Below are positions 37,081-61,093 of a DNA stretch of 64,000 nucleotides, in pieces. Under the pieces are notes generated by a model. It was not told where the DNA came from. It did no database searches and saw only the letters and a list, made by a program, of their open reading frames with translations. The stretch is from an uncultured virus (IMG/VR IMGVR_UViG_3300042519_001519) (Duplodnaviria > Heunggongvirae > Uroviricota > Caudoviricetes). A program made the translations under genes and the position numbers. Positions within the stretch are counted from its first letter, which is position 1; every line of letters begins with the position of its first letter. The stretch is from positions 1-64,000 of the IMG/VR virus record IMGVR_UViG_3300042519_001519. The stretch is one strand, 5' to 3'.

Positions 37081-37971
37081 ATGTCTAAAAAACATGTTGT
37101 AGTATCCTTAAGTGGAGGAATGGACTCAAGTACATTATTACTTAGATGTCTAAAAGAGTATGATAGTGTAACAGCTATCTCATTTGACTATGGTCAAAAA
37201 CACAGAGTAGAGCTAGATAGAGCTCAATCATTGGTGAATTATATAAATTCAAACGATTCTATTGAAGCTAATGGAAGTAATTACATATTTTACCCAAAAG
37301 TAAACTATCGCCAAATCAAACTAGACGGATTAGTTGACTTACTAGATTCAGCTTTAGTAACTGGAGGTGAAGATGTACCAGAAGGTCACTATGCAGAAGA
37401 TAATATGAAAGCAACAGTTGTTCCTAACAGAAACAAAATATTTGCTTCTATTACTCAAGCAATAGCTTTATCAGTTGCTCAAAGAACAGGTGAATTTTGT
37501 AGTATTGCTTTAGGTATTCACGCTGGAGATCATGCAATTTATCCTGATTGTAGACAAGAATTCCGTGATGCTGATGATTATGCATTTAGAATAGGAAATT
37601 GGGGAGCTGAAAATGTAGGGTATTTTACACCTTACTTGAAAGGAGATAAATTTACTATCTTACAAGACGGAGAAGTATTATGTGAAGAATTAGGATTAAA
37701 TTTTGATGAAGTTTATAAAAGAACTAACACATCTTATAAACCAATTTGGATACCTGGACCTGAAAGTAACTCAAGAGTAGAAGAAACACTTAGAACTAAA
37801 TTTGGAGAATGGTACTCAGATTATAAATCAGCTTCATCAGTTGAAAGAGTAGAAGCATTTATTAAATTAGGAAGAAAAGATCCAGCTCCTTATGCAGACG
37901 AAACAGGACCAGTAACATGGGAACATGTGGTAGCAGAGGTAACAAAAGTATTAGATAACCATAACAATTAA
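37081..37971 (+). CDS. queC: 7-cyano-7-deazaguanine synthase
   Basis: SLSGGMDS, FDYGQKH, TVVPNRN, HAGDHAIYPDCR. Confidence 0.95.
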   Translation: MSKKHVVVSLSGGMDSSTLLLRCLKEYDSVTAISFDYGQKHRVELDRAQSLVNYINSNDSIEANGSNYIFYPKVNYRQIKLDGLVDLLDSALVTGGEDVPEGHYAEDNMKATVVPNRNKIFASITQAIALSVAQRTGEFCSIALGIHAGDHAIYPDCRQEFRDADDYAFRIGNWGAENVGYFTPYLKGDKFTILQDGEVLCEELGLNFDEVYKRTNTSYKPIWIPGPESNSRVEETLRTKFGEWYSDYKSASSVERVEAFIKLGRKDPAPYADETGPVTWEHVVAEVTKVLDNHNN

Positions 37972-40241: not shown

Positions 40242-40325
40242 GGAAGGCGGCCGAATGGACGAGGAGCTTGTCTTGAAAACAAGTAGCGGGTAACACCGTT
40301 GTGGGTTCGATTCCCATGTCTTCCT
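40242..40325 (+). tRNA. tRNA-Ser(TGA)
   Basis: Cloverleaf; CTTGT-CTTGAAA-ACAAG; long variable arm. Confidence 0.9.
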
Positions 40326-40331
40326 CAATAT

Positions 40332-40403
40332 TGGCTTATAGTGTAACGGTTAGCACAAAACACTTTGACTGTTTTAGTCTAGGTTCGAATCCTAGTAAGC
40401 CAA
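40332..40403 (+). tRNA. tRNA-Gln(TTG)
   Basis: AAACA-CTTTGAC-TGTTT; canonical T-arm. Confidence 0.92.
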
Positions 40404-40412
40404 CAATAATTT

Positions 40413-40488
40413 CGGGTAGTAGAGGAGTCTGGTTTATCTCGCTGGCCTTGGACGCTAGAGCACGCAGGTTCGAATCCTGCTTACCCGA
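40413..40488 (+). tRNA. tRNA-Pro(TGG)
   Basis: CTGGC-CTTGGAC-GCTAG. Confidence 0.92.
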
Positions 40489-40494
40489 CGAATT

Positions 40495-40566
40495 GCCCCT
40501 ATAACTTAACGGCTAAAGTACTATACTTTTAATATAGGAATCCAAGTTCGATTCTTGGTGGGGGTA
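40495..40566 (+). tRNA. tRNA-Lys(TTT)
   Basis: CTATA-CTTTTAA-TATAG. Confidence 0.9.
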
Positions 40567-40571
40567 CAAAA

Positions 40572-40667
40572 GCTACATACACAACCTTACAATCTCTCAG
40601 TTAAAAGCTGTTGTAAGATCAAGTAATAAGCCAATATGCTTGTTAGTTGTGATCAGGTGTAGCACCA
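40572..40667 (+). ncRNA. Non-tRNA structured RNA with an acceptor-like stem and ACCA end
   Basis: GCTACAT/GTGTAGC+ACCA; CACAAC/GTTGTG; CTTACAA/TTGTAAG; TAATAAGC/GCTTGTTA. Confidence 0.65.
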
Positions 40668-40738
40668 GCCTCGTTGGCGTAATGGGAGCGTATTTCTTTT
40701 ACATGGAAATGGCAGTAGTTCGATTCTACTACGAGGTA
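40668..40738 (+). tRNA. tRNA-Val(TAC)
   Basis: TTTCT-TTTACAT-GGAAA; full cloverleaf. Confidence 0.85.
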
Positions 40739-40837
40739 CAAAATTCTGGGTAGCAAGTAAAATACCGGCAAGTATTTTCAAGTCTATATGGAGTCTATTA
40801 TGAGTTATTAATTTGCCGATGAAAGCTTGTTATAGTT

Positions 40838-40909
40838 TCGTTCTTGGTAGATTGGTGACTACGCTGCCCGCGGAGGGTGGAGAAGCAGGTTCGATTCCTG
40901 TAGAATGAT
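40838..40909 (+). tRNA. Atypical tRNA, anticodon CGG (Pro?), with G at position 33
   Basis: TCGTTCT/AGAATGA; GTAG/CTAC; CTGCC-CGCGGAG-GGTGG; canonical T-arm. Confidence 0.6.
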
Positions 40910-40915
40910 CAAATT

Positions 40916-40996
40916 GGGATGCTTCAGTCACTGGTGTGATAAGCGGTCTGTAAAATCGTTCTGTAAGAAGGTGTGGTTCGATTCCACAGTGTCCCA
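40916..40996 (+). tRNA. tRNA-Tyr(GTA)
   Basis: GCGGT-CTGTAAA-ATCGT; variable arm. Confidence 0.85.
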
Positions 40997-41058
40997 CAAA
41001 TATGGAATAACATCGCTCCCGTAATGCCATGGCTTGTATACGAGTGACGGGAGACAAT

Positions 41059-41131
41059 GGACCTTTGGTATAGCTGGTGCGTACGCTAGTCTGAAGAACT
41101 AGAGGAGTAGGTTCGATTCCTACAGGGTCCA
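41059..41131 (+). tRNA. tRNA-Phe(GAA)
   Basis: CTAGT-CTGAAGA-ACTAG. Confidence 0.92.
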
Positions 41132-41133
41132 CG

Positions 41134-41208
41134 AAGTAGAGAGGTATGGGTTCGAGTCCCATCCGGGCCGTTAGCGGCGCGGTAGTATAACGGTAGTAAC
41201 GCTTTCTT
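41134..41208 (+). ncRNA. Circularly permuted tRNA-like element (YrlA/Y-RNA-like topology)
   Basis: T-arm first, then acceptor stem closed by a TTAG loop, then D-arm; termini pair AAG-T-AGAG/CTTT-CTT. Confidence 0.7.
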
Positions 41209-41280
41209 GGGTTTGTCGTATAACGGCTATTACGGATGACTGTTAATCATCTTATGAAGGTTCGATTCCTTCCAGGCCCG
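41209..41280 (+). tRNA. tRNA-Asn(GTT)
   Basis: GATGA-CTGTTAA-TCATC. Confidence 0.92.
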
Positions 41281-41286
41281 CAAAAT

Positions 41287-41360
41287 AGGTAATTAGCTCA
41301 ATTGGTTAGAGCACTCGCCTGATACGTGAGAGGTTATAGGTTCGATTCCTATATTACCTA
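41287..41360 (+). tRNA. tRNA-Ile(GAT)
   Basis: CTCGC-CTGATAC-GTGAG. Confidence 0.92.
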
Positions 41361-41365
41361 CAAAG

Positions 41366-41448
41366 GGAAAGTAAATCAACTAGGAGTTGAGACCGCTTGC
41401 TAAGCGTATCGTGCCTTCGGGCATGGGGTTCGATACCTCTGCTTTCCT
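41366..41448 (+). tRNA. tRNA-Ser(GCT)
   Basis: TTGCTAA loop; GTGCC-TTCG-GGCAT variable arm; some mismatches. Confidence 0.8.
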
Positions 41449-41579
41449 CAAAAAAACCTCCTCACCGTCCTCACAACGCATCTAAGGAATGCAGGAGAAG
41501 GAAGTACGAACGGGGCCCCGTGGTAAGACACATTAAAATCAGATAGTACAGCGATAGGGTAAGAGGTTCCCTATCAACT

Positions 41580-41648
41580 ACCGACTTGATCTAGGATCGA
41601 GAATATCTCATAAGTATTCTCAGACAAGAGCGTAACTTGTAGTCGGTA
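41580..41648 (+). tRNA. Atypical tRNA(CAT) with a minimal D-arm and non-canonical T-loop
   Basis: ACCGACT/AGTCGGT; GAATAT-CTCATAA-GTATTC; ACAAG-AGCGTAA-CTTGT. Confidence 0.6.
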
Positions 41649-41765
41649 CTAAATTATATGGGTAGGTAGGAAGTTAAGAAACGTTTCTCAAAAAACGACT
41701 TAATGAGGTAAAGCGTTAGAGTAGTAAAATTGAGTAAGCGTTATTAAAGTAGTATAATTTTATAT

Positions 41766-41837
41766 GGTGTTCGAAGCTTTTTAGTGAAGCGCAAGACTGT
41801 GAATCTTGAGAAGACGGGGCGGTACCGTCCTTACACC
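41766..41837 (+). tRNA. tRNA-His(GTG), divergent
   Basis: CAAGA-CTGTGAA-TCTTG; G-1/C73; T-loop GGCGGTA and two acceptor mismatches. Confidence 0.75.
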
Positions 41838-41843
41838 CAACAT

Positions 41844-41923
41844 GCCTCTGTGGTGAAATAGGTAAACACACCAGGCTTAAAACTTGGCGCTCAGGCTTGC
41901 TGGTTCGACTCCAGTCAGGGGTA
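41844..41923 (+). tRNA. tRNA-Leu(TAA)
   Basis: CCAGG-CTTAAAA-CTTGG; variable arm. Confidence 0.9.
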
Positions 41924-42012
41924 CAAAAAAATCGCTGATGTCCTCTTTAATTGTTCGACATTGAAGATGTGTAATGATATAAACATCGTAGGTTAAGCGA
42001 TATCCTACAACT

Positions 42013-42084
42013 GGTCTTATAGTTTAATTGGAAAAACTTATCGCTACGAACGATAGAACGTAGGTTCGACTCCTACTAAGACCT
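42013..42084 (+). tRNA. tRNA-Arg(ACG)
   Basis: TATCG-CTACGAA-CGATA. Confidence 0.92.
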
Positions 42085-42244
42085 CAAAATATAATTACAA
42101 AGCGTAGGTAAGAAGACGTGGAGAGACGTTGCGCAAGGGTACACACTAAGGATAAGTATTTATACTCAACTCTCTAAGGGTGTGTGAAGCACTAAGAAAT
42201 TAGATCCCAGATTCCTGATAAAACTTACTAATTATATTTTAACC

Positions 42245-42316
42245 GCCCTATTAGTTAAACGGATATAACGAATCTCTTCTAAAGATTAATTCTAGGTTCG
42301 ATTCCTGGATGGGGTA
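42245..42316 (+). tRNA. tRNA-Arg(TCT)
   Basis: AATCT-CTTCTAA-AGATT. Confidence 0.92.
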
Positions 42317-42322
42317 CAACAA

Positions 42323-42393
42323 GCGGGTCACAGACAAGGTGTCGGTACGGTCTCCAAAACTGCTACGGGTAGGTTCGATTCCTACGGTCTGCG
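42323..42393 (+). tRNA. tRNA-Trp(CCA), short D-arm
   Basis: CGGT-CTCCAAA-ACTG; canonical T-arm. Confidence 0.8.
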
Positions 42394-42460
42394 CAAAATT
42401 ATTAATTATGAAAAAGAAATTCGATGCTCATTAGGTTTATTAACCTAAAATTTGAGCAAG

Positions 42461-42643
42461 ATGAGAATCAAAAACTATACTCAGAAAGAGTATAAAAAAG
42501 AAAAAAGAAAACAATCCAAAGATGGTGGAATGTGGTTTGAAGACTATTGGAGTAAATGTAAATCCGGAATATGGGCCTTCAAGTACAGAGAGTACCGTAC
42601 TTGGAAGTACAACAGAAAAACACAGTATAAACCTTTAAATTAA
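42461..42643 (+). CDS. Small basic hypothetical protein
   Basis: Lys/Arg/Trp-rich; ends RTWKYNRKTQYK. Confidence 0.5.
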   Translation: MRIKNYTQKEYKKEKRKQSKDGGMWFEDYWSKCKSGIWAFKYREYRTWKYNRKTQYKPLN

Positions 42644-42648
42644 AAATC

Positions 42649-43155
42649 ATGAGTAAGTATCAAAAAGCACTAGTAGTGGATGCAAGCTTTACAGCAAGAT
42701 CAGTTATAAGTACCGAACGAGCGTTCGTGATTTTTTATAAGGGTAATGCTGAAGTAGTAGCAGAGCATCCAGAAACATTTAGTTTAATTAATCCTGAACT
42801 AACCATTTACAAACCTTCTATTATTAGAGTAGCTAAGTATGTAAAACAAAACATTCAAAAAGTACCTCTAACAAGAGAGAATATTTACCGAAGAGATAAT
42901 TATGAATGTGTTTATTGTGGTAGTTCAAATCAAAGAATATTAACACTTGACCATGTTATCCCTCAATCAAAAGGAGGAAAAGATGCTTGGGATAATTTAG
43001 TAACAGCTTGTAGACCATGTAATCATGAGAAAGCAGATTTAACATTAGAGGAATATGGTAAGGAAATTCCAGAACCAAAAAGACCTCATTATTTAATGTT
43101 AATGAGAAGTATGACATACATACCTAAAGAATGGGAAACATTTTTATTCTTTTAA
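42649..43155 (+). CDS. HNH endonuclease inside the tRNA array
   Basis: RDNYECVYCG...LTLDHVIPQSKGG...NLVTACRPCNHEK. Confidence 0.93.
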   Translation: MSKYQKALVVDASFTARSVISTERAFVIFYKGNAEVVAEHPETFSLINPELTIYKPSIIRVAKYVKQNIQKVPLTRENIYRRDNYECVYCGSSNQRILTLDHVIPQSKGGKDAWDNLVTACRPCNHEKADLTLEEYGKEIPEPKRPHYLMLMRSMTYIPKEWETFLFF

Positions 43156-43158
43156 ATA

Positions 43159-43314
43159 ATGGAAGAGTGGAAGCCAGGATATTATGATAAATGGGAGAAT
43201 TTTATTCCTTATGATAAAAAATGGTATTGTAATGAAAATAAAAGAATCCATCAATCAGAAAAGGAAAAAAATAATTGTAAGTATTGCAATAAAGGTTTGG
43301 AAAACCAGAAATAG
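43159..43314 (+). CDS. 51-aa possible Zn-binding peptide (not in the ORF track)
   Basis: C-x6-H-x8-C-x2-C spacing. Confidence 0.4.
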   Translation: MEEWKPGYYDKWENFIPYDKKWYCNENKRIHQSEKEKNNCKYCNKGLENQK

Positions 43315-43327
43315 TTTCATATATTAA
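43297..43327 (+). promoter_or_regulatory. Internal promoter for the second half of the tRNA array
   Basis: TTG-N20-TATATTAA. Confidence 0.7.
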
Positions 43328-43424
43328 GGTATAAGAAAGTAAAATATATCACCTACTACAAAACGGCGCGCGAAACAATAGAATCCCGACTTGTACTGTC
43401 TGGAAGGTCAGGCTAGGTGAAAAT

Positions 43425-43495
43425 GGGCAGTTGGCCGATTGGTTAGGCACAGGATTGCAAACTCTGTTAGGTTGGTTCGATTCCAACACTGCCCT
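43425..43495 (+). tRNA. tRNA-Cys(GCA)
   Basis: TTGCAAA loop; U73. Confidence 0.88.
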
Positions 43496-43590
43496 CATTT
43501 AAGGTTCGACCCTCTACCAAATGTGTTACACCCACAAATGGACAACGAGAGGGAGCTACCGATTGATAAGTGGCCGCACATGCGGCAAAT

Positions 43591-43664
43591 GCCCGAGTGG
43601 TGGAATTGGCAGACACGGCGGCCTTAGAAGTCGTAAACTGAGAGTTCGAGTCTCTCCTTGGGTA
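43591..43664 (+). tRNA. tRNA-Leu(TAG) lacking the long variable arm
   Basis: GCGGC-CTTAGAA-GTCGT; Leu-type D-loop; 5-nt variable region. Confidence 0.85.
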
Positions 43665-43668
43665 CAAA

Positions 43669-43735
43669 TTAGAGTTAGCTTATAGTAAAGCAGCAGGGGC
43701 TAACCTGCAGAACGGATACGAAAACCGGCTCTAAT
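43669..43735 (+). ncRNA. Degenerate tRNA-like element (6-nt loop GGCTAA, aberrant T-arm)
   Basis: TTAGAGT/GCTCTAA; GCTT/AAGC; GCAGG/CCTGC; CGG/CCG. Confidence 0.55.
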
Positions 43736-43740
43736 TATCT

Positions 43741-43814
43741 GCTTCTGACGCACAAATGGTGGTGCACCGGATTTGTAACCCAGAATAGAGTCGGTTCGAT
43801 CCCGTCCAGAAGCT
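43741..43814 (+). tRNA. tRNA-Thr(TGT), mismatched anticodon stem
   Basis: GCTTCTG/CAGAAGC; TTTGTAA loop. Confidence 0.7.
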
Positions 43815-43819
43815 CAACT

Positions 43820-43891
43820 GCGACTATCGTATAATGGTCATTACTTCAGACTTCCAATCTGAAGATGAGAGTTCGATTCTCTCTAGTCGCT
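43820..43891 (+). tRNA. tRNA-Gly(TCC)
   Basis: TCAGA-CTTCCAA-TCTGA. Confidence 0.93.
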
Positions 43892-43942
43892 CAGGGGTGT
43901 GTAGGAGCCCAAGAGTATGTGATGAGCATACGCCTACAATTT

Positions 43943-44014
43943 GCTGCCATCGTCTAACGGCTAGGACCTATGGTTTTCATCCATAAAATCGGAGTTCGAT
44001 TCTCCGTGGCAGTA
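43943..44014 (+). tRNA. tRNA-Glu(TTC)
   Basis: TATGG-TTTTCAT-CCATA. Confidence 0.92.
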
Positions 44015-44019
44015 CAAAA

Positions 44020-44091
44020 GGGGCTATAGTGAAATTGGCATCACGATAGATTTGCATTCTGTTATTCCGGGTTCGAATCCCGGTAGCTCCA
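44020..44091 (+). tRNA. tRNA-Ala(TGC)
   Basis: TTTGCAT loop; G3-U70 pair. Confidence 0.93.
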
Positions 44092-44096
44092 CAAAA

Positions 44097-44168
44097 GGTC
44101 TATTCGTTCAACGGCTAGGATACTACCCTGTCACGGTAGGGATGAGAGTTCGATTCTCTCATAGACCG
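44097..44168 (+). tRNA. tRNA-Asp(GTC)
   Basis: CTACC-CTGTCAC-GGTAG; G73. Confidence 0.93.
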
Positions 44169-44177
44169 CTTATAAAC

Positions 44178-44247
44178 TGCGTTAAAGTGTAAAGGTTGCA
44201 TCCCGGTCTCATAAGCCGGGGGGGTGGTTCGAGTCCACGCTACGCTA
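44178..44247 (+). tRNA. tRNA(CAT), initiator-like
   Basis: CCGGT-CTCATAA-GCCGG; 1:72 mismatch. Confidence 0.7.
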
Positions 44248-44253
44248 CAAATT

Positions 44254-44327
44254 GTCCTTTTAGCTCAGATGGTGAGAGCAGCTCGCTCATAACGAGAAGG
44301 TCACAGGTTCGAGCCCTGTATAGGACA
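44254..44327 (+). tRNA. tRNA(CAT), elongator Met or Ile2
   Basis: CTCG-CTCATAA-CGAG; canonical D and T arms. Confidence 0.85.
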
Positions 44328-54793: not shown

Positions 54794-56464
54794 ATGAATA
54801 ATAAATTTACATTCCACGTATTAGGACTTCCTCATACAATCACTAATAGAGAATTTGTAGCATGTGCTTATACACAAAAGGCTTGGAAATTCTGTAAGAT
54901 GATGGGGGAAAGAGGGCATACTATCTACCATTACGGACATGAGGAGAGCGACGCTCCATATGCGGAAAACGTAACAGTTATCACCAATAAGGTATGGAAA
55001 AAAGTATACGGTACTCATGACTATAAATCTAAATTCTTTAAATATAATGTAGAGGATGAAGCCTATCAAACCTTCTATAAAAATGCTATAAAGGAAATAG
55101 GAAAGAGAAAACAGAAGAATGATTTCATTTTACCATTCTGGGGGTCAGGAGTAAGGCCGGTATGTGACGGACATCCAGATTTAATAACTGTTGAACCAGG
55201 AATAGGCTATGCAGGAGGGCATTGGGCAAATTGGAAAGTATTTGAATCTTATGCAATCTACCATGCATACTACGGACTGATGGGAGTGAATTATTGCGAT
55301 ATGAAAAACTACGAAGTAGTAATTCCAAACTACTTCGACCTCTCTGATTTTGAATTTAGCGATAAAAAAGAAGATTACTTTCTTTATTTAGGAAGAGTCT
55401 TTGACGGAAAAGGAGTTAATATAGCAATCCAGGTTACTGAACACTTAGGGTATAAATTAAAGATAGCAGGACAGATTGACGCCGATGGACCTTATAAGGA
55501 TGGAAAGTTTCCTCCTCATGTAGAGTTTGTAGGGTATGCTGGAACCGAAAAGAGAAAAGAACTGATGAAGAGTGCAAAAGGATGCTTCCTACCTTCACAA
55601 TATGTTGAACCATTTGGAGGAGTTCAAATAGAAAATTTACTATCAGGAACACCAACAATTACCTCAGACTGGGGAGCCTTTGCAGAGAATAATATAAACG
55701 GAGTAACTGGTTACAGATGTAGAACGTTTGATGATTACTTGCAGGCAACTATAAAAATTAACAACGGAGAAATAGATTACAAGACTTGTAGAGAGTATGG
55801 AGAAAAGTTTTCATTAGAGAATGTAGCTCCTATGTACGAAAAATATTTTAAAGATATTTTAAATGTTTATGAAGGAGAAGGATGGTATCAAACAGATATT
55901 CCTAGAGGGAAGACTGATGCTTTCAATTATACAAATATGGAGGAAGAAGAAAAGCCATTTGCAGATAATCTAGCTAAGTGGATTAAAAAGTATTACAATC
56001 CTAAAAAAGTAGTCGATGTAGGTTGCGGGAGTGGGACTTATGTAAGGTCCTTAAGAAAAGAAAAAATTGATGCTATTGGGTACGATATTAACGATGTAGT
56101 AGAAGATCAGGACTTTCTCTTTAAAAAGAGTATCTTTGACCTAAACCATAAATCAGAACTAATTATCTGCCTGGAAGTAGCCGAGCACATAGAGACAGAA
56201 CACAACGACAGTATTGTTGAAAAGTTATACGAAAACCTTAAACCAGGAGGTACTTTAATCTTCACAGCAGCACATCCAGGACAGCAAGGAATAGGTCATA
56301 TAAACTGTCAAACAAAAGACTACTGGTGGGAGAAGTTTGCAGAAAAAGGATTAGTCCGAGATTTAAAAGCAGAGAAGGATTGGGAAGATTATTTTGATCA
56401 AGGAAGAGAGTACATGGGATGGTTCCGTATGAACAAGCTCTTTTTAACTAGAGTAGGATCATAA
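54794..56464 (+). CDS. GT-B (GT4-like) glycosyltransferase fused to a class I SAM methyltransferase
   Basis: YLGRV..GKG, EPFGGVQIE; VVDVGCGSG, CLEVAEHI, LKPGG. Confidence 0.88.
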   Translation: MNNKFTFHVLGLPHTITNREFVACAYTQKAWKFCKMMGERGHTIYHYGHEESDAPYAENVTVITNKVWKKVYGTHDYKSKFFKYNVEDEAYQTFYKNAIKEIGKRKQKNDFILPFWGSGVRPVCDGHPDLITVEPGIGYAGGHWANWKVFESYAIYHAYYGLMGVNYCDMKNYEVVIPNYFDLSDFEFSDKKEDYFLYLGRVFDGKGVNIAIQVTEHLGYKLKIAGQIDADGPYKDGKFPPHVEFVGYAGTEKRKELMKSAKGCFLPSQYVEPFGGVQIENLLSGTPTITSDWGAFAENNINGVTGYRCRTFDDYLQATIKINNGEIDYKTCREYGEKFSLENVAPMYEKYFKDILNVYEGEGWYQTDIPRGKTDAFNYTNMEEEEKPFADNLAKWIKKYYNPKKVVDVGCGSGTYVRSLRKEKIDAIGYDINDVVEDQDFLFKKSIFDLNHKSELIICLEVAEHIETEHNDSIVEKLYENLKPGGTLIFTAAHPGQQGIGHINCQTKDYWWEKFAEKGLVRDLKAEKDWEDYFDQGREYMGWFRMNKLFLTRVGS

Positions 56465-56499
56465 AAAGATATTTCTTATATTTATTAACATATAACAAC

Positions 56500-56529
56500 A
56501 GTGTCGTAGCACCACTTTAAAAACACACC
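56500..56529 (+). promoter_or_regulatory. preQ1-I riboswitch-like aptamer heading the queD/queE operon
   Basis: AGTG-TCGTAGCAC-CACT-TTAAAAACAC between the promoter (56454-56484) and ATG 56532. Confidence 0.7.
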
Positions 56530-56531
56530 TT

Positions 56532-56855
56532 ATGGCAACATATTTTAAGAAGCCTTCCATAGAGAAAGCAGAACAATCGGTTATAATGGATAGAGTTCTA
56601 GAACAAAAAAAGAAAGAACTCTCACCAGGAGATTTCAAAACCTATGCAAACTTTACTACTCAGCAAGAACTGCTTGAAGAAGCAACTAGAAGAAATCTAT
56701 TAGCAATTCCAGATCCAAAACTACATCAACAAATTTCATTTATCAAATCCGGTATAAGAATACTTGGATACTTTCTATTACCTTTTAATCTTTTATTAGG
56801 AGCTGGAGTATTAATTTTAAGTGAAATAGTTGGAATTTACGAAGAATTAGTTTAA
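56532..56855 (+). CDS. Hypothetical protein with a C-terminal hydrophobic hairpin
   Basis: HQQISFIKSGIRILGY...EIVGIYEELV. Confidence 0.6.
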   Translation: MATYFKKPSIEKAEQSVIMDRVLEQKKKELSPGDFKTYANFTTQQELLEEATRRNLLAIPDPKLHQQISFIKSGIRILGYFLLPFNLLLGAGVLILSEIVGIYEELV

Positions 56856-56864
56856 ATTAGAGTT

Positions 56865-57014
56865 ATGAGAGAGGTGAACGATCACGTAAAAGAAGCTTTA
56901 GGTATAAAGCCTAAGAAGAGATTTAAGAAAGACTACACAAAAGCATTTGTATGGATAGGGCTTGCTCTAATCACAATTGCTATATGGACAACAATTTACA
57001 ATTTAATATTTTAA
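56865..57014 (+). CDS. 49-aa membrane peptide (not in the ORF track)
   Basis: Basic N-terminus plus C-terminal TM; fills the gap before queD. Confidence 0.5.
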   Translation: MREVNDHVKEALGIKPKKRFKKDYTKAFVWIGLALITIAIWTTIYNLIF

Positions 57015-57017
57015 CAA

Positions 57018-57479
57018 ATGAAATTTCAAGCAACAAAACTATTTGACGGCTACTCAGCATGCTTTCGACAATGGAAAGCAGAGGGTACACATTGCAGATT
57101 TCTTCACGGCTATGCCGTATCATTCCGAGTATGGTTCGAAGGAGAACTAGACGAAAGAAACTGGGTATGGGACTTCGGAGGAATGAAAAGAGCTAAAGGA
57201 AACATCGAAGGATATTCTCCAAAAGCATTTTTCGATTACCTATTAGATCATACAACTATTGTAGCAGAGGATGATCCTTATATGGATACATTTAAACAAA
57301 TGCATAACGACGGCGTTATACAGTTAAGAATACTTCCTGCTACAGGATGTGAACGATTTGCAGAATACTTACATTTAAAAATCAATACATTTTTACTTGA
57401 AGAAACAAACAGTAGAGTAAGAGCTACTAAGGTAGAAGTTTACGAACATGAAAGGAACTCAGCATCTTATGGTGAGTAA
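57018..57479 (+). CDS. queD: 6-carboxy-5,6,7,8-tetrahydropterin synthase
   Basis: CRFLHGY, WVWDFG, LDH, CE, VYEH..NSA. Confidence 0.9.
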   Translation: MKFQATKLFDGYSACFRQWKAEGTHCRFLHGYAVSFRVWFEGELDERNWVWDFGGMKRAKGNIEGYSPKAFFDYLLDHTTIVAEDDPYMDTFKQMHNDGVIQLRILPATGCERFAEYLHLKINTFLLEETNSRVRATKVEVYEHERNSASYGE

Positions 57480-57792: not shown

Positions 57793-58566
57793 ATGAAAAG
57801 AATAGAAGATTATAACAAAACACTTCCCATTGTAGAGCTTTATACAGCAGTACAATCAGAAGGAAGTAGAGCAGGTTATCCAACCGTAGTAATCAGAACA
57901 ACAGGCTGTACTCACAGATGTTGGTTTGGTGATGGTGGATGGTGCGATTCTTGGTACACAAGTATACATCCTGAAAAAGGACATATCAGTTTTCAAGATA
58001 TTATTAACATGTATGATGCCAATCCCCACATCACAGAGATGATGCTAACAGGAGGATCACCAACAATGCATCCAGCATTAGTAAACGAATTAACACATTT
58101 TGCACATGAAAGAAATATTTTCATTACGATTGAGACCGAAGGAAGTCATTTTCTTGAGACAGATTACCCAATTAATCTATTATCAATCTCCCCTAAGTTC
58201 AGTAATTCTGTCCCTAAGGTTGGCATTGCAACACCTCAAGGAGACATTACAGATGAGAAAATGATTAAACAGCATAACAAGCTAAGATTAAACTACGATG
58301 CAATATCCAAATCAATCTCTTATCATTCAGACTACCATTTAAAACCGGTATGGGATGGAGAGGATCAAGAAGCATTAAAAGAGATTATGAATTGTATTAA
58401 AATGCTAGACATACCAGAAGATAAAGTATGGTTCATGCCAGCAGGAGATTCAAGAGAAGCTTTATTCAAATCATATCCAAAAATGTTTGATTGGGTTAGA
58501 GATAACGGTTATAGATTGACCTGGAGACCTCACATCATTGCATTTGAAGACCAAAGAGAAGTGTAA
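57793..58566 (+). CDS. queE: 7-carboxy-7-deazaguanine synthase (radical SAM)
   Basis: VQSEG..AG.P, RTTGCTHRC...WCDS, LTGGSP, IETEG, ISPK. Confidence 0.92.
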   Translation: MKRIEDYNKTLPIVELYTAVQSEGSRAGYPTVVIRTTGCTHRCWFGDGGWCDSWYTSIHPEKGHISFQDIINMYDANPHITEMMLTGGSPTMHPALVNELTHFAHERNIFITIETEGSHFLETDYPINLLSISPKFSNSVPKVGIATPQGDITDEKMIKQHNKLRLNYDAISKSISYHSDYHLKPVWDGEDQEALKEIMNCIKMLDIPEDKVWFMPAGDSREALFKSYPKMFDWVRDNGYRLTWRPHIIAFEDQREV

Positions 58567-58771: not shown

Positions 58772-59065
58772 ATGACATTAAAAGATCTAATCGATTTAGC
58801 AGGGGATAGAGAACTATCAAAATCATATCCAAAAGCAGATGGCCTTTACATCTGGGATTATAAGTTACAATTCAATCAAGACCTTAATTTAGAGCTAGTA
58901 TTAATACCAAGTGACTCAGGTAAGACAGGATTTAAAGATAAAGTATCTATCGAAGAATTAGTAAATTACGTATTGGAGTCAACAGATCCAGAAGTATCAG
59001 GAGACGAAGTTATCTCACAACTACAAATTGTAGACGTGGAAGGAATTACAATCGCAAAGGTATAG
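58772..59065 (+). CDS. Hypothetical protein
   Basis: ORF in operon. Confidence 0.55.
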   Translation: MTLKDLIDLAGDRELSKSYPKADGLYIWDYKLQFNQDLNLELVLIPSDSGKTGFKDKVSIEELVNYVLESTDPEVSGDEVISQLQIVDVEGITIAKV

Positions 59066-59066
59066 T

Positions 59067-59651
59067 ATGAAGAAGTTTTTATTATTACTCTTACTTCCGT
59101 TATTAGGGTTTGGACAGTTAAGAGATAGCGTTTATGTAAAGACAGACATATACGAGGTAATGTATTCAGAGACATTAGAGCAACCATTGTGGGTAAAGTA
59201 CCAAGTACTGTGCACTGGAGTAGGAGCATCTAGAAAAGGAATGGATTTCTATAAAGATAAAACAATTCATACCTCAGATGAAAAAGACTATGCATTCAAT
59301 ATCTACGACAAAGGACATTGTGCACCAGCAGCTGACTTTAACTGTACTAGAGAAATGTTATTTAAAACATTCTCATACCTAAACTGTACTCTTCAAAATG
59401 AAAGACTAAATAGAGTTCATTGGAGACTATTAGAAGACTATGAAAGACTTTTAGCCTTTTCAGAAGGACCAGTCAACGTTGAAATAAAAATAGTATTTGA
59501 TAAAAATCCCAGACGAGTTCCGGCAGGTGCAGCTATTCCTACGGCTTTCTATAAGATTATCAAAACTAAGAGTAAGACAATTGCTTTTTACTTTCTAAAT
59601 GAAGCACCAAAGAAAGCAACGTTTGTAGATTATCAAGTAAAAATTAAATAG
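59067..59651 (+). CDS. Secreted DNA/RNA non-specific endonuclease (NucA/EndA-like)
   Basis: Signal peptide (FG/Q); YDKGHCAPAAD, TFSYLN..LQ..LNR..W..LE, IPTAFYK. Confidence 0.9.
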   Translation: MKKFLLLLLLPLLGFGQLRDSVYVKTDIYEVMYSETLEQPLWVKYQVLCTGVGASRKGMDFYKDKTIHTSDEKDYAFNIYDKGHCAPAADFNCTREMLFKTFSYLNCTLQNERLNRVHWRLLEDYERLLAFSEGPVNVEIKIVFDKNPRRVPAGAAIPTAFYKIIKTKSKTIAFYFLNEAPKKATFVDYQVKIK

Positions 59652-59653
59652 TT

Positions 59654-60049
59654 ATGGCACTAAAAATAGGAAATAAAGTTTATTTAAGCTGGGATGATAT
59701 CAACATCTTAGTAGAAGATTTAGCAAATACAATAGCAGCATCAGGAGCAGAGATTAAATCGATAACAGGTATTCAAAGAGGAGGATTAATACCAGCAGTA
59801 ATGATCTCCCACAAGCTCCACATACCTTACGTTAGTAGAATAAATAAAGATACTTTGGTAGTAGATGATATTTGTGATACAGGAGAGACGTTAAAAAATA
59901 CTATTGGAATGTATACTGCAACGCTTCATTACAAACCAACAGCAATCTTTACTCCAGACTTCTACTCAAAAGAAGTAGGAACAGAGTGGATTGTATACCC
60001 TTGGGAAAGAAATGACTCAGAAACTATTCAAGATTATTTGAAAAAATAG
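59654..60049 (+). CDS. Purine phosphoribosyltransferase (Gpt-like)
   Basis: GIQRGGLIPA, LVVDDICDTGET, WIVYPWE. Confidence 0.9.
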   Translation: MALKIGNKVYLSWDDINILVEDLANTIAASGAEIKSITGIQRGGLIPAVMISHKLHIPYVSRINKDTLVVDDICDTGETLKNTIGMYTATLHYKPTAIFTPDFYSKEVGTEWIVYPWERNDSETIQDYLKK

Positions 60050-60087
60050 TTGCAGGATAAAGTAAAAAATGTTATATTAAATAAAAC

Positions 60088-60114
60088 GGAGTCGTAGAAC
60101 CTCCATAAAAACAA
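60088..60114 (+). promoter_or_regulatory. preQ1-I riboswitch-like aptamer upstream of folE
   Basis: GGAG-TCGTAGAAC-CTCC-ATAAAAACAA between the promoter (60050-60080) and ATG 60121. Confidence 0.75.
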
Positions 60115-60120
60115 TCTTAT

Positions 60121-60828
60121 ATGTCAAATAAAAAATTTATCGACGGTACAGAATTAGTACAAGCCGGATTCGCTAATGGTATTTCCTCTCAATTGGCAAA
60201 AAAACAACTAACAGAAGGTCCAGAAGCAAGATTAACTGAAGTAGAAAAGCAACACATCATTGAAGATGCAGCAGAAGCTTTCGGACAATTCCTTTCAGCT
60301 TTAGGATGTGATTGGCAGAATGATCCAAATTCATCTGATACTCCTAAAAGAGTTGCAAAAGCATACGTAAACGATTTATGGGCAGGTCGATTTGAACCAC
60401 TAACAAGAATTACAGCATTCCCTTCTGATGGTTATGATGGAATAGTACAAGAGAGTAATATACCAGTTACCTCAATGTGCTCACATCACCACCAAACAAT
60501 TTCAGGAGAGGTAAGTATAGCTTATGTTCCTTCAGCAGATGGAAAGGTAGTTGGGCTTTCAAAATTAAATCGAATTGTAGAGCAGTTTGCTAGACGTGGA
60601 GCTATTCAAGAGCAGTTAACAGTTGCAATTCATAATGCAGTAGATAAAATCTGTGAAGGTAATCTAGGAGTAGCAGTAGCAATTTCAGCAACACATAACT
60701 GTGTATCGTGTAGAGGGATTAAACATCAGGGAGCTTCAATGCAAACAGCAAAGTTAACAGGGTGTTTCTTAGATGAAGCATCAGCAAGAGCAGAATTCTA
60801 TACAAATATTAAACTTGGAAAAAAATAA
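60121..60828 (+). CDS. folE: GTP cyclohydrolase I
   Basis: DTPKRVAK, SMCSHHH, VGLSKLNR, QEQLT, HNCVSCRG. Confidence 0.96.
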   Translation: MSNKKFIDGTELVQAGFANGISSQLAKKQLTEGPEARLTEVEKQHIIEDAAEAFGQFLSALGCDWQNDPNSSDTPKRVAKAYVNDLWAGRFEPLTRITAFPSDGYDGIVQESNIPVTSMCSHHHQTISGEVSIAYVPSADGKVVGLSKLNRIVEQFARRGAIQEQLTVAIHNAVDKICEGNLGVAVAISATHNCVSCRGIKHQGASMQTAKLTGCFLDEASARAEFYTNIKLGKK

Positions 60829-61041: not shown

Positions 61042-61093
61042 TAAGTTGGCTCTTCGGAGCCAATTTCTTATATTAATAAAAAAGTAAAAAGTT

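Follow-up and report, generated by a model that had tools for sequence, protein, structure and literature searches.

Two copies of a conserved, pathway-specific cis-regulatory RNA were identified in the que (7-deazaguanine synthesis) region of an uncultured phage. On the strength of their sequence both copies are probably riboswitch aptamers that act in cis and represent a compact form of the class I preQ1 kind; they would exert feedback on translation of the que pathway. The analysed window covers positions 1 to 64,000 of an IMG/VR virus record of 76,046 bases, the completeness of which was estimated at 47%. At the DNA level the que region is approximately 87% identical to Flavobacterium phage vB_FspM_immuto, and judged by its sequence the window phage is an IMG/VR relative of immuto. 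The annotation of immuto has the same gene order, namely QueD, QueE, phosphoribosyltransferase, FolE, DpdA, formyltransferase and QueF. The features of the window, including scores from a covariance model of the motif (R1), are as follows.

56475 to 56483, plus strand: promoter-like box CTTATATTT ahead of copy A, a recurrent box located 48 nt before the ATG
56500 to 56527, plus strand: candidate aptamer copy A, based on sequence, R1 score (54.3 bits), P1 covariation and a match to class I type II features
56500 to 56503, 56504 to 56505 and 56506 to 56509, within copy A: P1 5' strand, L1 (UC) and putative P2 5' strand (GUAG)
56510 to 56512 and 56513 to 56516, within copy A: L2 (CAC), with the candidate specificity C at 56512, and P1 3' strand
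56517 to 56523 and 56524 to 56527, within copy A: A-rich L3 and putative P2 3' strand (CACA)
56532 to 56855, plus strand: ORF107, 107 codons, first gene after copy A
56865 to 57014, plus strand: small open frame of 49 aa between ORF107 and queD
57018 to 57479, plus strand: queD, 6-carboxytetrahydropterin synthase type with a PTPS fold (PF01242, E 5.4e-15; QueD in immuto)
57793 to 58566, plus strand: queE, radical SAM 7-carboxy-7-deazaguanine synthase (Pfam Radical_SAM; QueE in immuto)
60071 to 60079, plus strand: promoter-like box GTTATATTA ahead of copy B, a recurrent box conserved in immuto and located 41 nt before the folE ATG
60088 to 60115, plus strand: candidate aptamer copy B, with P1 GGAG/CUCC, loop UCGUAGAAC, L3 AUAAAAA and tail CAAU (R1 50.2 bits)
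60121 to 60828, plus strand: folE, GTP cyclohydrolase I, first step of the 7-deazaguanine pathway (PF01227, E 2.6e-44)

Copy A (56500-56526) reads AGUG-UCGUAGCAC-CACU-UUAAAAACAC and is followed by ACCUU and then by the ATG at 56532. Copy B (60088-60114) reads GGAG-UCGUAGAAC-CUCC-AUAAAAACAA, with the folE ATG at 60121. The two loops differ at 1 of 9 positions. The 4-bp stems both pair, and pairs 1 and 3 differ between the copies with both sides changed. An earlier note on this DNA had described the 56500 copy as the second of two, heading the queD/queE operon with a matching loop and a different but paired stem. The sequence at both sites bears this out, copy A lying ahead of ORF107, queD and queE. 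The promoter-like motif that the note placed upstream was also present, while the distance to the ATG is 5 nt (ACCUU) and not the 2 nt given there. The motif scan that the note proposed was run on the record. TCGTAGMACC had two matches in the window and no further ones in the rest of the 76,046-base record. Both sites are in the que cluster, and with 0 matches for the reversed control the pattern exceeds chance. R1 scored copy A at 54.3 bits and copy B at 50.2 bits, with the next best match at 16.2 bits (21 matches, E ≤ 10, filters off).

The 49-aa ORF is conserved. It corresponds to a hypothetical protein directly ahead of QueD in immuto and was also found in related loci. The gene queC is located at 37096-37743, approximately 19 kb from the rest of the cluster, and queF (record positions 63811-64740) extends past the end of the window. 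Neither has an aptamer ahead of it, which indicates that the putative switch covers only the first committed steps. The folE promoter and aptamer are immediately preceded by the gene (59654-60049) of a 131-aa phosphoribosyltransferase. This enzyme could recycle DpdA-released guanine through GMP into the pathway.

Four other intergenic starts (19102, 44666, 46198 and 61067) have a box of the form [CG][TG]TATATT[AT] at a distance of 18 nt upstream of the ATG. At copies A and B the spacing is 48 and 41 nt, as if the aptamer had been inserted downstream of a standard phage promoter, before the start codon. A TATATT-type hexamer was present within 45 nt upstream in 72 of 79 motif instances, and the motif lies 8-16 nt downstream of the promoter-like box. 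The AUG is 5-13 nt downstream of the tail C across instances. No terminator was found after copy A or copy B and no Shine-Dalgarno sequence was found at the motif-led starts. A terminator-like hairpin of 10 pairs was observed at 61043-61066, followed by the promoter-like box CTTATATTA (61067-61075) and, 18 nt later, by a MazG-type gene. This hairpin and box (61043-61075) neatly separate the MazG-type gene from folE and a 65-aa DUF4494 gene.

Contigs assembled from four metatranscriptome libraries cover the aptamer and ORF107 (X1, 56490-57029; X2, 56343-56524; X3, 56362-56624; X6, 56452-57197). This coverage consists of assembled contigs of RNA libraries, in which starts and strands are not readable, gaps in cover carry no meaning and DNA may be present. 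X1 ends at 56490, where a transcript start would be expected, and this is a weak hint of a 5' end. The upstream promoter-like box and the contig cover are weak evidence against a motif outside the transcript, a possibility which the earlier note had raised.

The motif was then collected from uncultured phages. One IMG/VR pattern, with one more base before the A-run, gave 107 matches, of which 6 had a full stem and 5 were real. The main IMG/VR pattern scan gave at least 132 stretches and 130 were parsed. Among the matches listed 95 of 130 had a fully paired 4-bp stem, comprising 65 distinct sequences with the stems AGUG/CACU, UGAG/CUCA, GGAG/CUCC, GGUG/CACC and UGUG/CACA. R1 was built from 61 sequences. 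Two matches with full stems (L096 and L237) had no promoter and no ORF start; they were classed as chance matches and left out of the model and the alignments. When R1 was run on five phage records it gave 2, 2, 2, 1 and 2 matches (E ≤ 0.1), which were 2-3 kb apart. Two of these records are 94-100% complete. Every match was inside a que cluster, and the motif was not found before unrelated genes in these records; its presence before such genes was what the earlier note had named as counting against the reading.

A pooled set of at least 77 distinct instances was assembled from all sources, requiring a paired stem, AC and an ATG within 16 nt, with L096 dropped. The next gene was assigned for 77 of 77 pooled instances and belonged to the ORF107 family in 40, FolE in 31, QueD in 3, QueE in 2 and FolE2 in 1. 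The script that assigned the next ORF gave 39 ORF107 family, 30 FolE, 3 QueD and 2 QueE. Three were resolved by hand, as FolE (L259), the ORF107 family (L417) and FolE2 (PF02649, 30.8 bits). FolE2 is GTP cyclohydrolase IB and is non-homologous to FolE, and its presence beside FolE among the next genes indicates that the motif follows the pathway rather than one gene family. A search for relatives of the FolE2 gene returned its own contig only. The claim that both copies precede deazaguanine genes therefore extends to all 77 pooled instances. The proposal of a coordinated regulon under a putative riboswitch is likewise supported by the que-gene specificity, the stem covariation and the match to the class I contact pattern.

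Loci were also retrieved by protein sequence. The motif was present in 46 of 80 loci retrieved with FolE (E ≤ 1), each ending at the folE start, and in 29 of 80 retrieved with ORF107, which also gave one 16.9-bit noise match. It was always on the gene strand. As it was absent from 34 of the FolE loci and 51 of the ORF107 loci, the motif is dispensable. QueF and QueC were both encoded in the five aptamer-bearing records checked, and therefore preQ1 is made.

Among prokaryotes (one genome per species, 185,579 species) 22 matches to the exact pattern were found, of which two were real. Both (L341 and L342) are on one 5.9-kb contig, NYWG01000135.1, from a Verrucomicrobiales MAG bin. An ORF107 homologue and FolE are encoded there as well, and the contig looks like mis-binned phage DNA. 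R1 gave one weak false match and nothing real on 151 Bacteroidota genomes, where 45 first-look candidates were scored per genome, and RF00522 gave 0 matches on the same genomes. The compact form so far appears phage-restricted. No earlier description of this element was found in full-text searches of openly accessible papers.

The P1 hairpin is supported by covariation. In the alignment of 77 sequences, a set filtered beforehand for stem pairing, pair 1 was AU in 50, UA in 14 and GC in 13, and pair 3 was UA in 61 and AU in 16. Pairs 2 and 4 were GC throughout this alignment and no one-sided change was seen at any pair. RNAalifold gave the same P1 helix on the alignment unaided. A stem-blind pattern was applied to the protein-retrieved loci and gave 30 distinct matches, of which 8 were dropped as coding sequence or register duplicates. 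Of the 22 in-context instances 21 paired at 4 of 4 positions, and the other (L261) at 3 of 4. In a relative with the stem UAAG/CUUA (L451) pair 2 was changed on both sides. Three of the four P1 pairs covary, with six stem types in total, and the closing G-C pair alone never changes. The covarying stem, inferred in the earlier note from two copies, therefore holds across phages. Single-sequence thermodynamic folding was no better than shuffles (z +0.38 to -1.60).

In copy A and the other copies with a CAC loop the 5' strand can slip to give a GUGU/GCAC pairing (56501-56512 in copy A). At -2.4 kcal/mol the slipped fold has the lowest energy for the copy A 32-mer, and the candidate specificity cytosine would be hidden in it. 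Copies with an AAC loop cannot form this fold, and it is probably incidental, although it might represent a conformation without ligand.

The motif has the order G(closing)-U-C-G-U-A-G, N-A-C, P1 3' strand, A-tract and C-A-N-N. Most instance sets came from patterns that prescribed the loop, the AC and the G...C closing pair, and the invariance of these features is partly built in; the protein-retrieved sets are free of this bias. The specificity-type AC directly before the P1 3' strand was found in every instance, including the protein-retrieved ones, which alone count as a test because the pattern scans required AC. The closing G-C of P1 and the first L1 base (U) were invariant both in alignment A5 and in the protein-retrieved leaders. 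The A-rich L3 has four invariant A columns and a fifth at 90% or more in alignment A5, and a run of 4-8 A was present in all instances.

A P2 pseudoknot helix between the loop and the tail is plausible from the pairing pattern. The loop G and tail C were G/C in 71 of 72 instances, and the two bases were A/U together in the other (L303). L303 is a folE leader on an IMG/VR contig with the loop UUUUAACAC and U for the tail C, giving a putative A-U ceiling pair, and this variant aptamer was not shared by its closest FolE relatives. The loop base equivalent to C9 of the Thermoanaerobacter aptamer could pair with tail position +3 in 59 of 77 instances, a value equalled in 321 of 10,000 shuffles that ignored relatedness. 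The distal P2 pair fails in 18 of 77. Five UCACAG variants have C at the C9-equivalent position and all five have G at +3. Among the variants with A at this position 1 of 5 pairs. On the MAFFT alignment 76% of P2 cells were paired.

Comparison with known RNA families was carried out using Rfam 15. At gathering thresholds 19 tRNAs were found in the window and nothing else. At E ≤ 10 no family matched either leader in three window sizes down to 45 nt. The PreQ1 model RF00522 alone, run on the record at E ≤ 10, matched neither copy and gave four weak matches elsewhere, the best at 13.6 bits compared to a gathering threshold of 39. The THF-II riboswitch ('folE motif') is a small RNA found upstream of folE genes and the family is included in Rfam. 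The folE leader differs from it in having no Rfam match at E ≤ 10, THF-II included. The phage motif also heads queD, queE and FolE2 genes and so points to a deazaguanine rather than a folate.

Class I preQ1 aptamers are described as H-type pseudoknots (PMC11625349, PMC7641330). According to PMC11625349 the C immediately before the P1 3' strand pairs with preQ1 and is preceded by A in types II and III or by U in type I. The first uracil of L1 and the last A of the A-rich L3 read the other edge of the ligand (PMC11625349, PMC7641330), and the G of the P1 closing pair contacts the aminomethyl group of preQ1 through its O6 (PMC11625349). In the type II aptamer of Thermoanaerobacter, S2 is reported to comprise G11-C30, G8-A31, A10-A32 and C9-G33, with a C7 triple on G11-C30 (PMC11625349, PMC7641330).

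The phage loop G-U-C-G-U-A-G corresponds to Thermoanaerobacter G5, U6, C7, G8, C9, A10 and G11, except for U in place of C9. Set against the published descriptions of class I type II (RF00522; Thermoanaerobacter tengcongensis and Bacillus subtilis), the phage element shares the P1 hairpin, the A-rich L3 and a back-pairing tail, which is putative in the phage. It also shares the AC before the P1 3' strand, the invariant G-C closing pair, a loop of UC followed by G-N-A-G and a tail starting with CA. Like type II it is tied to 7-deazaguanine synthesis genes, and it is adjacent to the start codon as in the translational Thermoanaerobacter switch. The phage P1 has 4 bp compared to the 5 implied by the Thermoanaerobacter numbering (G5-C16 closing). 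L2 has 3 nt compared to 4, and L3 has 7 nt compared to a stretch from about position 21 to position 29 in Thermoanaerobacter. The whole element has 28 nt compared to the crystallised Thermoanaerobacter 33-mer. Unlike type II it has no Shine-Dalgarno bases in P2, is not detected by RF00522 and was found on phage contigs only. The element is best read as a compact class I preQ1-like variant in which the contact bases named above are all present and invariant, the C9 equivalent excepted.

Type I is the type reported from Bacteroidota (PMC11625349). It is described there as having UC before the P1 3' strand, UU after the 5' strand and two stacked ligands. The corresponding bases of the phage motif are AC and UC, unlike type I, and one ligand is therefore expected. 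In the type I switch of Carnobacterium antarcticum pseudoknot formation is reported to weigh more than burial of the Shine-Dalgarno sequence, termed 'indirect occlusion', and for this reason the review predicts such switches in organisms that do not use Shine-Dalgarno sequences (PMC11625349).

In the proposed mechanism each aptamer would be transcribed from a standard phage promoter and would lie at the extreme 5' end of the mRNA. A free 7-deazaguanine base, as it accumulates, would be read by the C before the P1 3' strand (56512 in copy A and 60100 in copy B). The ligand is most likely preQ1, with preQ0 possible. It would be stacked between the invariant G-C closing pair of P1 and the loop-G/tail-C pair, and the A-tract would dock in the P1 minor groove to close the H-type pseudoknot. 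The pseudoknot would end 4-12 nt before the start codon, and its folding alone would keep the 30S subunit from loading. Less protein would then presumably be made from folE and from the ORF107-queD-queE operon, so that the flow of GTP towards the G-replacing base of the phage DNA would be under feedback control. With no terminator found and the AUG 5-13 nt after the tail C, control is expected at initiation or by pausing. This start codon distance, together with the lack of a Shine-Dalgarno sequence, points to occlusion of initiation by the pseudoknot. Bacteroidetes are described as not using Shine-Dalgarno sequences, initiation being tuned by mRNA structure and by upstream bases (PMC6847099). 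In a host phylum of this kind a ligand-locked pseudoknot in the ribosome landing zone would be expected to repress directly.

The same fold could serve another purine-like ligand, such as formyl-preQ1, 7-carboxy-7-deazaguanine or DpdA-released guanine, although this is considered unlikely. No characterised class I type is as small as this aptamer with its 4-bp P1 and 3-nt L2, variant pockets in other riboswitch classes are reported to have switched ligand (PMC11625349), and a phosphoribosyltransferase gene is directly ahead of copy B. The end product in immuto is formyl-preQ1, and formylation may take place either on the free base or on DNA. However, the positions described as contacting preQ1 in class I are all kept (specificity C, loop U, last A of L3 and closing G), and QueF was encoded in 5 of 5 checked records, so that preQ1 is made.

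Phages do use protein-bound operators at start sites. The hairpin and A-rich tail might be a translational operator of this kind, bound by a phage or host protein, with a coincidental likeness to preQ1-I; the Rfam model does not recognise the element and the P2 helix is only putative. Six separate class I ligand-contact features and a compensated stem drift would not be expected of such an operator, the motif tracks function and not gene family (FolE2 as well as FolE), and no candidate RNA-binding protein co-occurred among the window's own neighbour genes, which were the genes checked. An operator was accordingly given little weight. A DNA-level element, either an operator or part of the promoter, was judged very improbable. 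The motif does follow the promoter-like box by 8-16 nt and contains a short inverted repeat, but its half-sites vary and yet stay complementary across the six stem types, which argues for a folded strand rather than a protein reading fixed half-sites. The loop and A-tail are also asymmetric and strand-specific, being always on the gene strand, and RNA-library contigs cover the element. The preferred reading remains a class I preQ1-kind aptamer.

ORF107 has a variable N-terminus and a conserved C-terminal domain of approximately 50 aa. Conserved residues include P60, K63, H65, Q66, S69, F70, K72, S73, I75 and R76, and further on E98, G101 and I102. In an alignment of 31 homologues the domain has 18 invariant positions and ends in EELV. 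No Pfam or PHROG family matched ORF107, the protein atlas gave unnamed viral clusters only, and tblastn found nothing in 50,697 cultured phage records. When 1.84 billion representatives were searched with a profile, 954 cluster representatives passed E ≤ 0.001 and 245 passed E ≤ 1e-10. The matches were all small (shortest 51 aa), with the domain always C-terminal, and no fused or known N-terminal domain was found by Pfam in 12 longer members. AlphaFold2 predicted a helical hairpin at 62-106 (pLDDT about 90). The second helix of this predicted hairpin is hydrophobic, and ORF107 is therefore likely to be a membrane or oligomeric hairpin. Of the 80 loci for which ORF107 was the sole protein query, 70 encoded QueD, QueE, FolE or DpdA within 1.5 kb, the usual arrangement being ORF107-QueD-QueE. 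Homologues of ORF 56532 thus co-occur with que genes, a check that the earlier note had proposed, and the association supports the suggestion that ORF107 is a pathway-linked component.

The chances were put at about even that the element is a fourth, phage-only type of class I preQ1 aptamer, the smallest natural aptamer of its kind at 28 nt and the first riboswitch over DNA hypermodification. The same estimate takes in Shine-Dalgarno-free translational control in a Bacteroidota phage and a role for ORF107, a small protein of probable membrane type and the one that would most often be controlled, as an unrecognised 7-deazaguanine player. A 2024 review of the preQ1 family names riboswitches in Shine-Dalgarno-free mRNAs as an open challenge (PMC11625349). 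The phage element is a concrete and abundant candidate for the switch which that review predicts. If the reading is correct, phages that replace all G would detect the modified base in its free form and tune their consumption of GTP, and the lower size limit of natural ligand-sensing folds would be extended. Curated covariance models would be missing a whole phage branch of a known class, which bears on the annotation of viral metagenomes. The ORF107 family, with 954 cluster representatives that have no annotation, is a new lead in the 7-deazaguanine pathway.

In immuto G is fully replaced by formyl-preQ1 and the formyltransferase is DpdN (bioRxiv preprint on immuto). The term 'riboswitch' is absent from the main text of the preprint. 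The host is a Flavobacterium, Flavobacterium sp. LMO8. The copy B aptamer and its leader up to the ATG are letter-for-letter the same in immuto, and a 73-nt match around copy B had 97.3% identity (blastn). The element is therefore testable in a cultured system, immuto and its host. Among 50,697 cultured phage records copy B was found in immuto isolates only. Copy A was found in none of these records, blastn giving chance-level matches only (E 2-7). One preceded the gene for a T4-type ssDNA-binding protein and the others came from Streptococcus satellite phages; que genes were absent nearby, and these matches were rejected.

The small ORF and queD directly follow the promoter box in immuto, and ORF107 and the aptamer are absent there. 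Compared to immuto the window phage has an insertion (54794-56464 and 56532-56855) that comprises a 556-aa fusion protein, ORF107 and aptamer copy A. The 556-aa protein is a group-1 glycosyltransferase fused to a class I methyltransferase. RNA-library contigs of relatives also do not have the glycosyltransferase part, with loose ends at 56452. A DNA/RNA non-specific endonuclease gene (PF01223) was found at 59067-59651, between the queE block and the phosphoribosyltransferase gene. It has no counterpart in immuto, and in one RNA-library contig position 59064 runs straight on to 59653, with the gene missing. Elsewhere in the window a cluster of 19 tRNA genes is located on the plus strand at 40242-44327.
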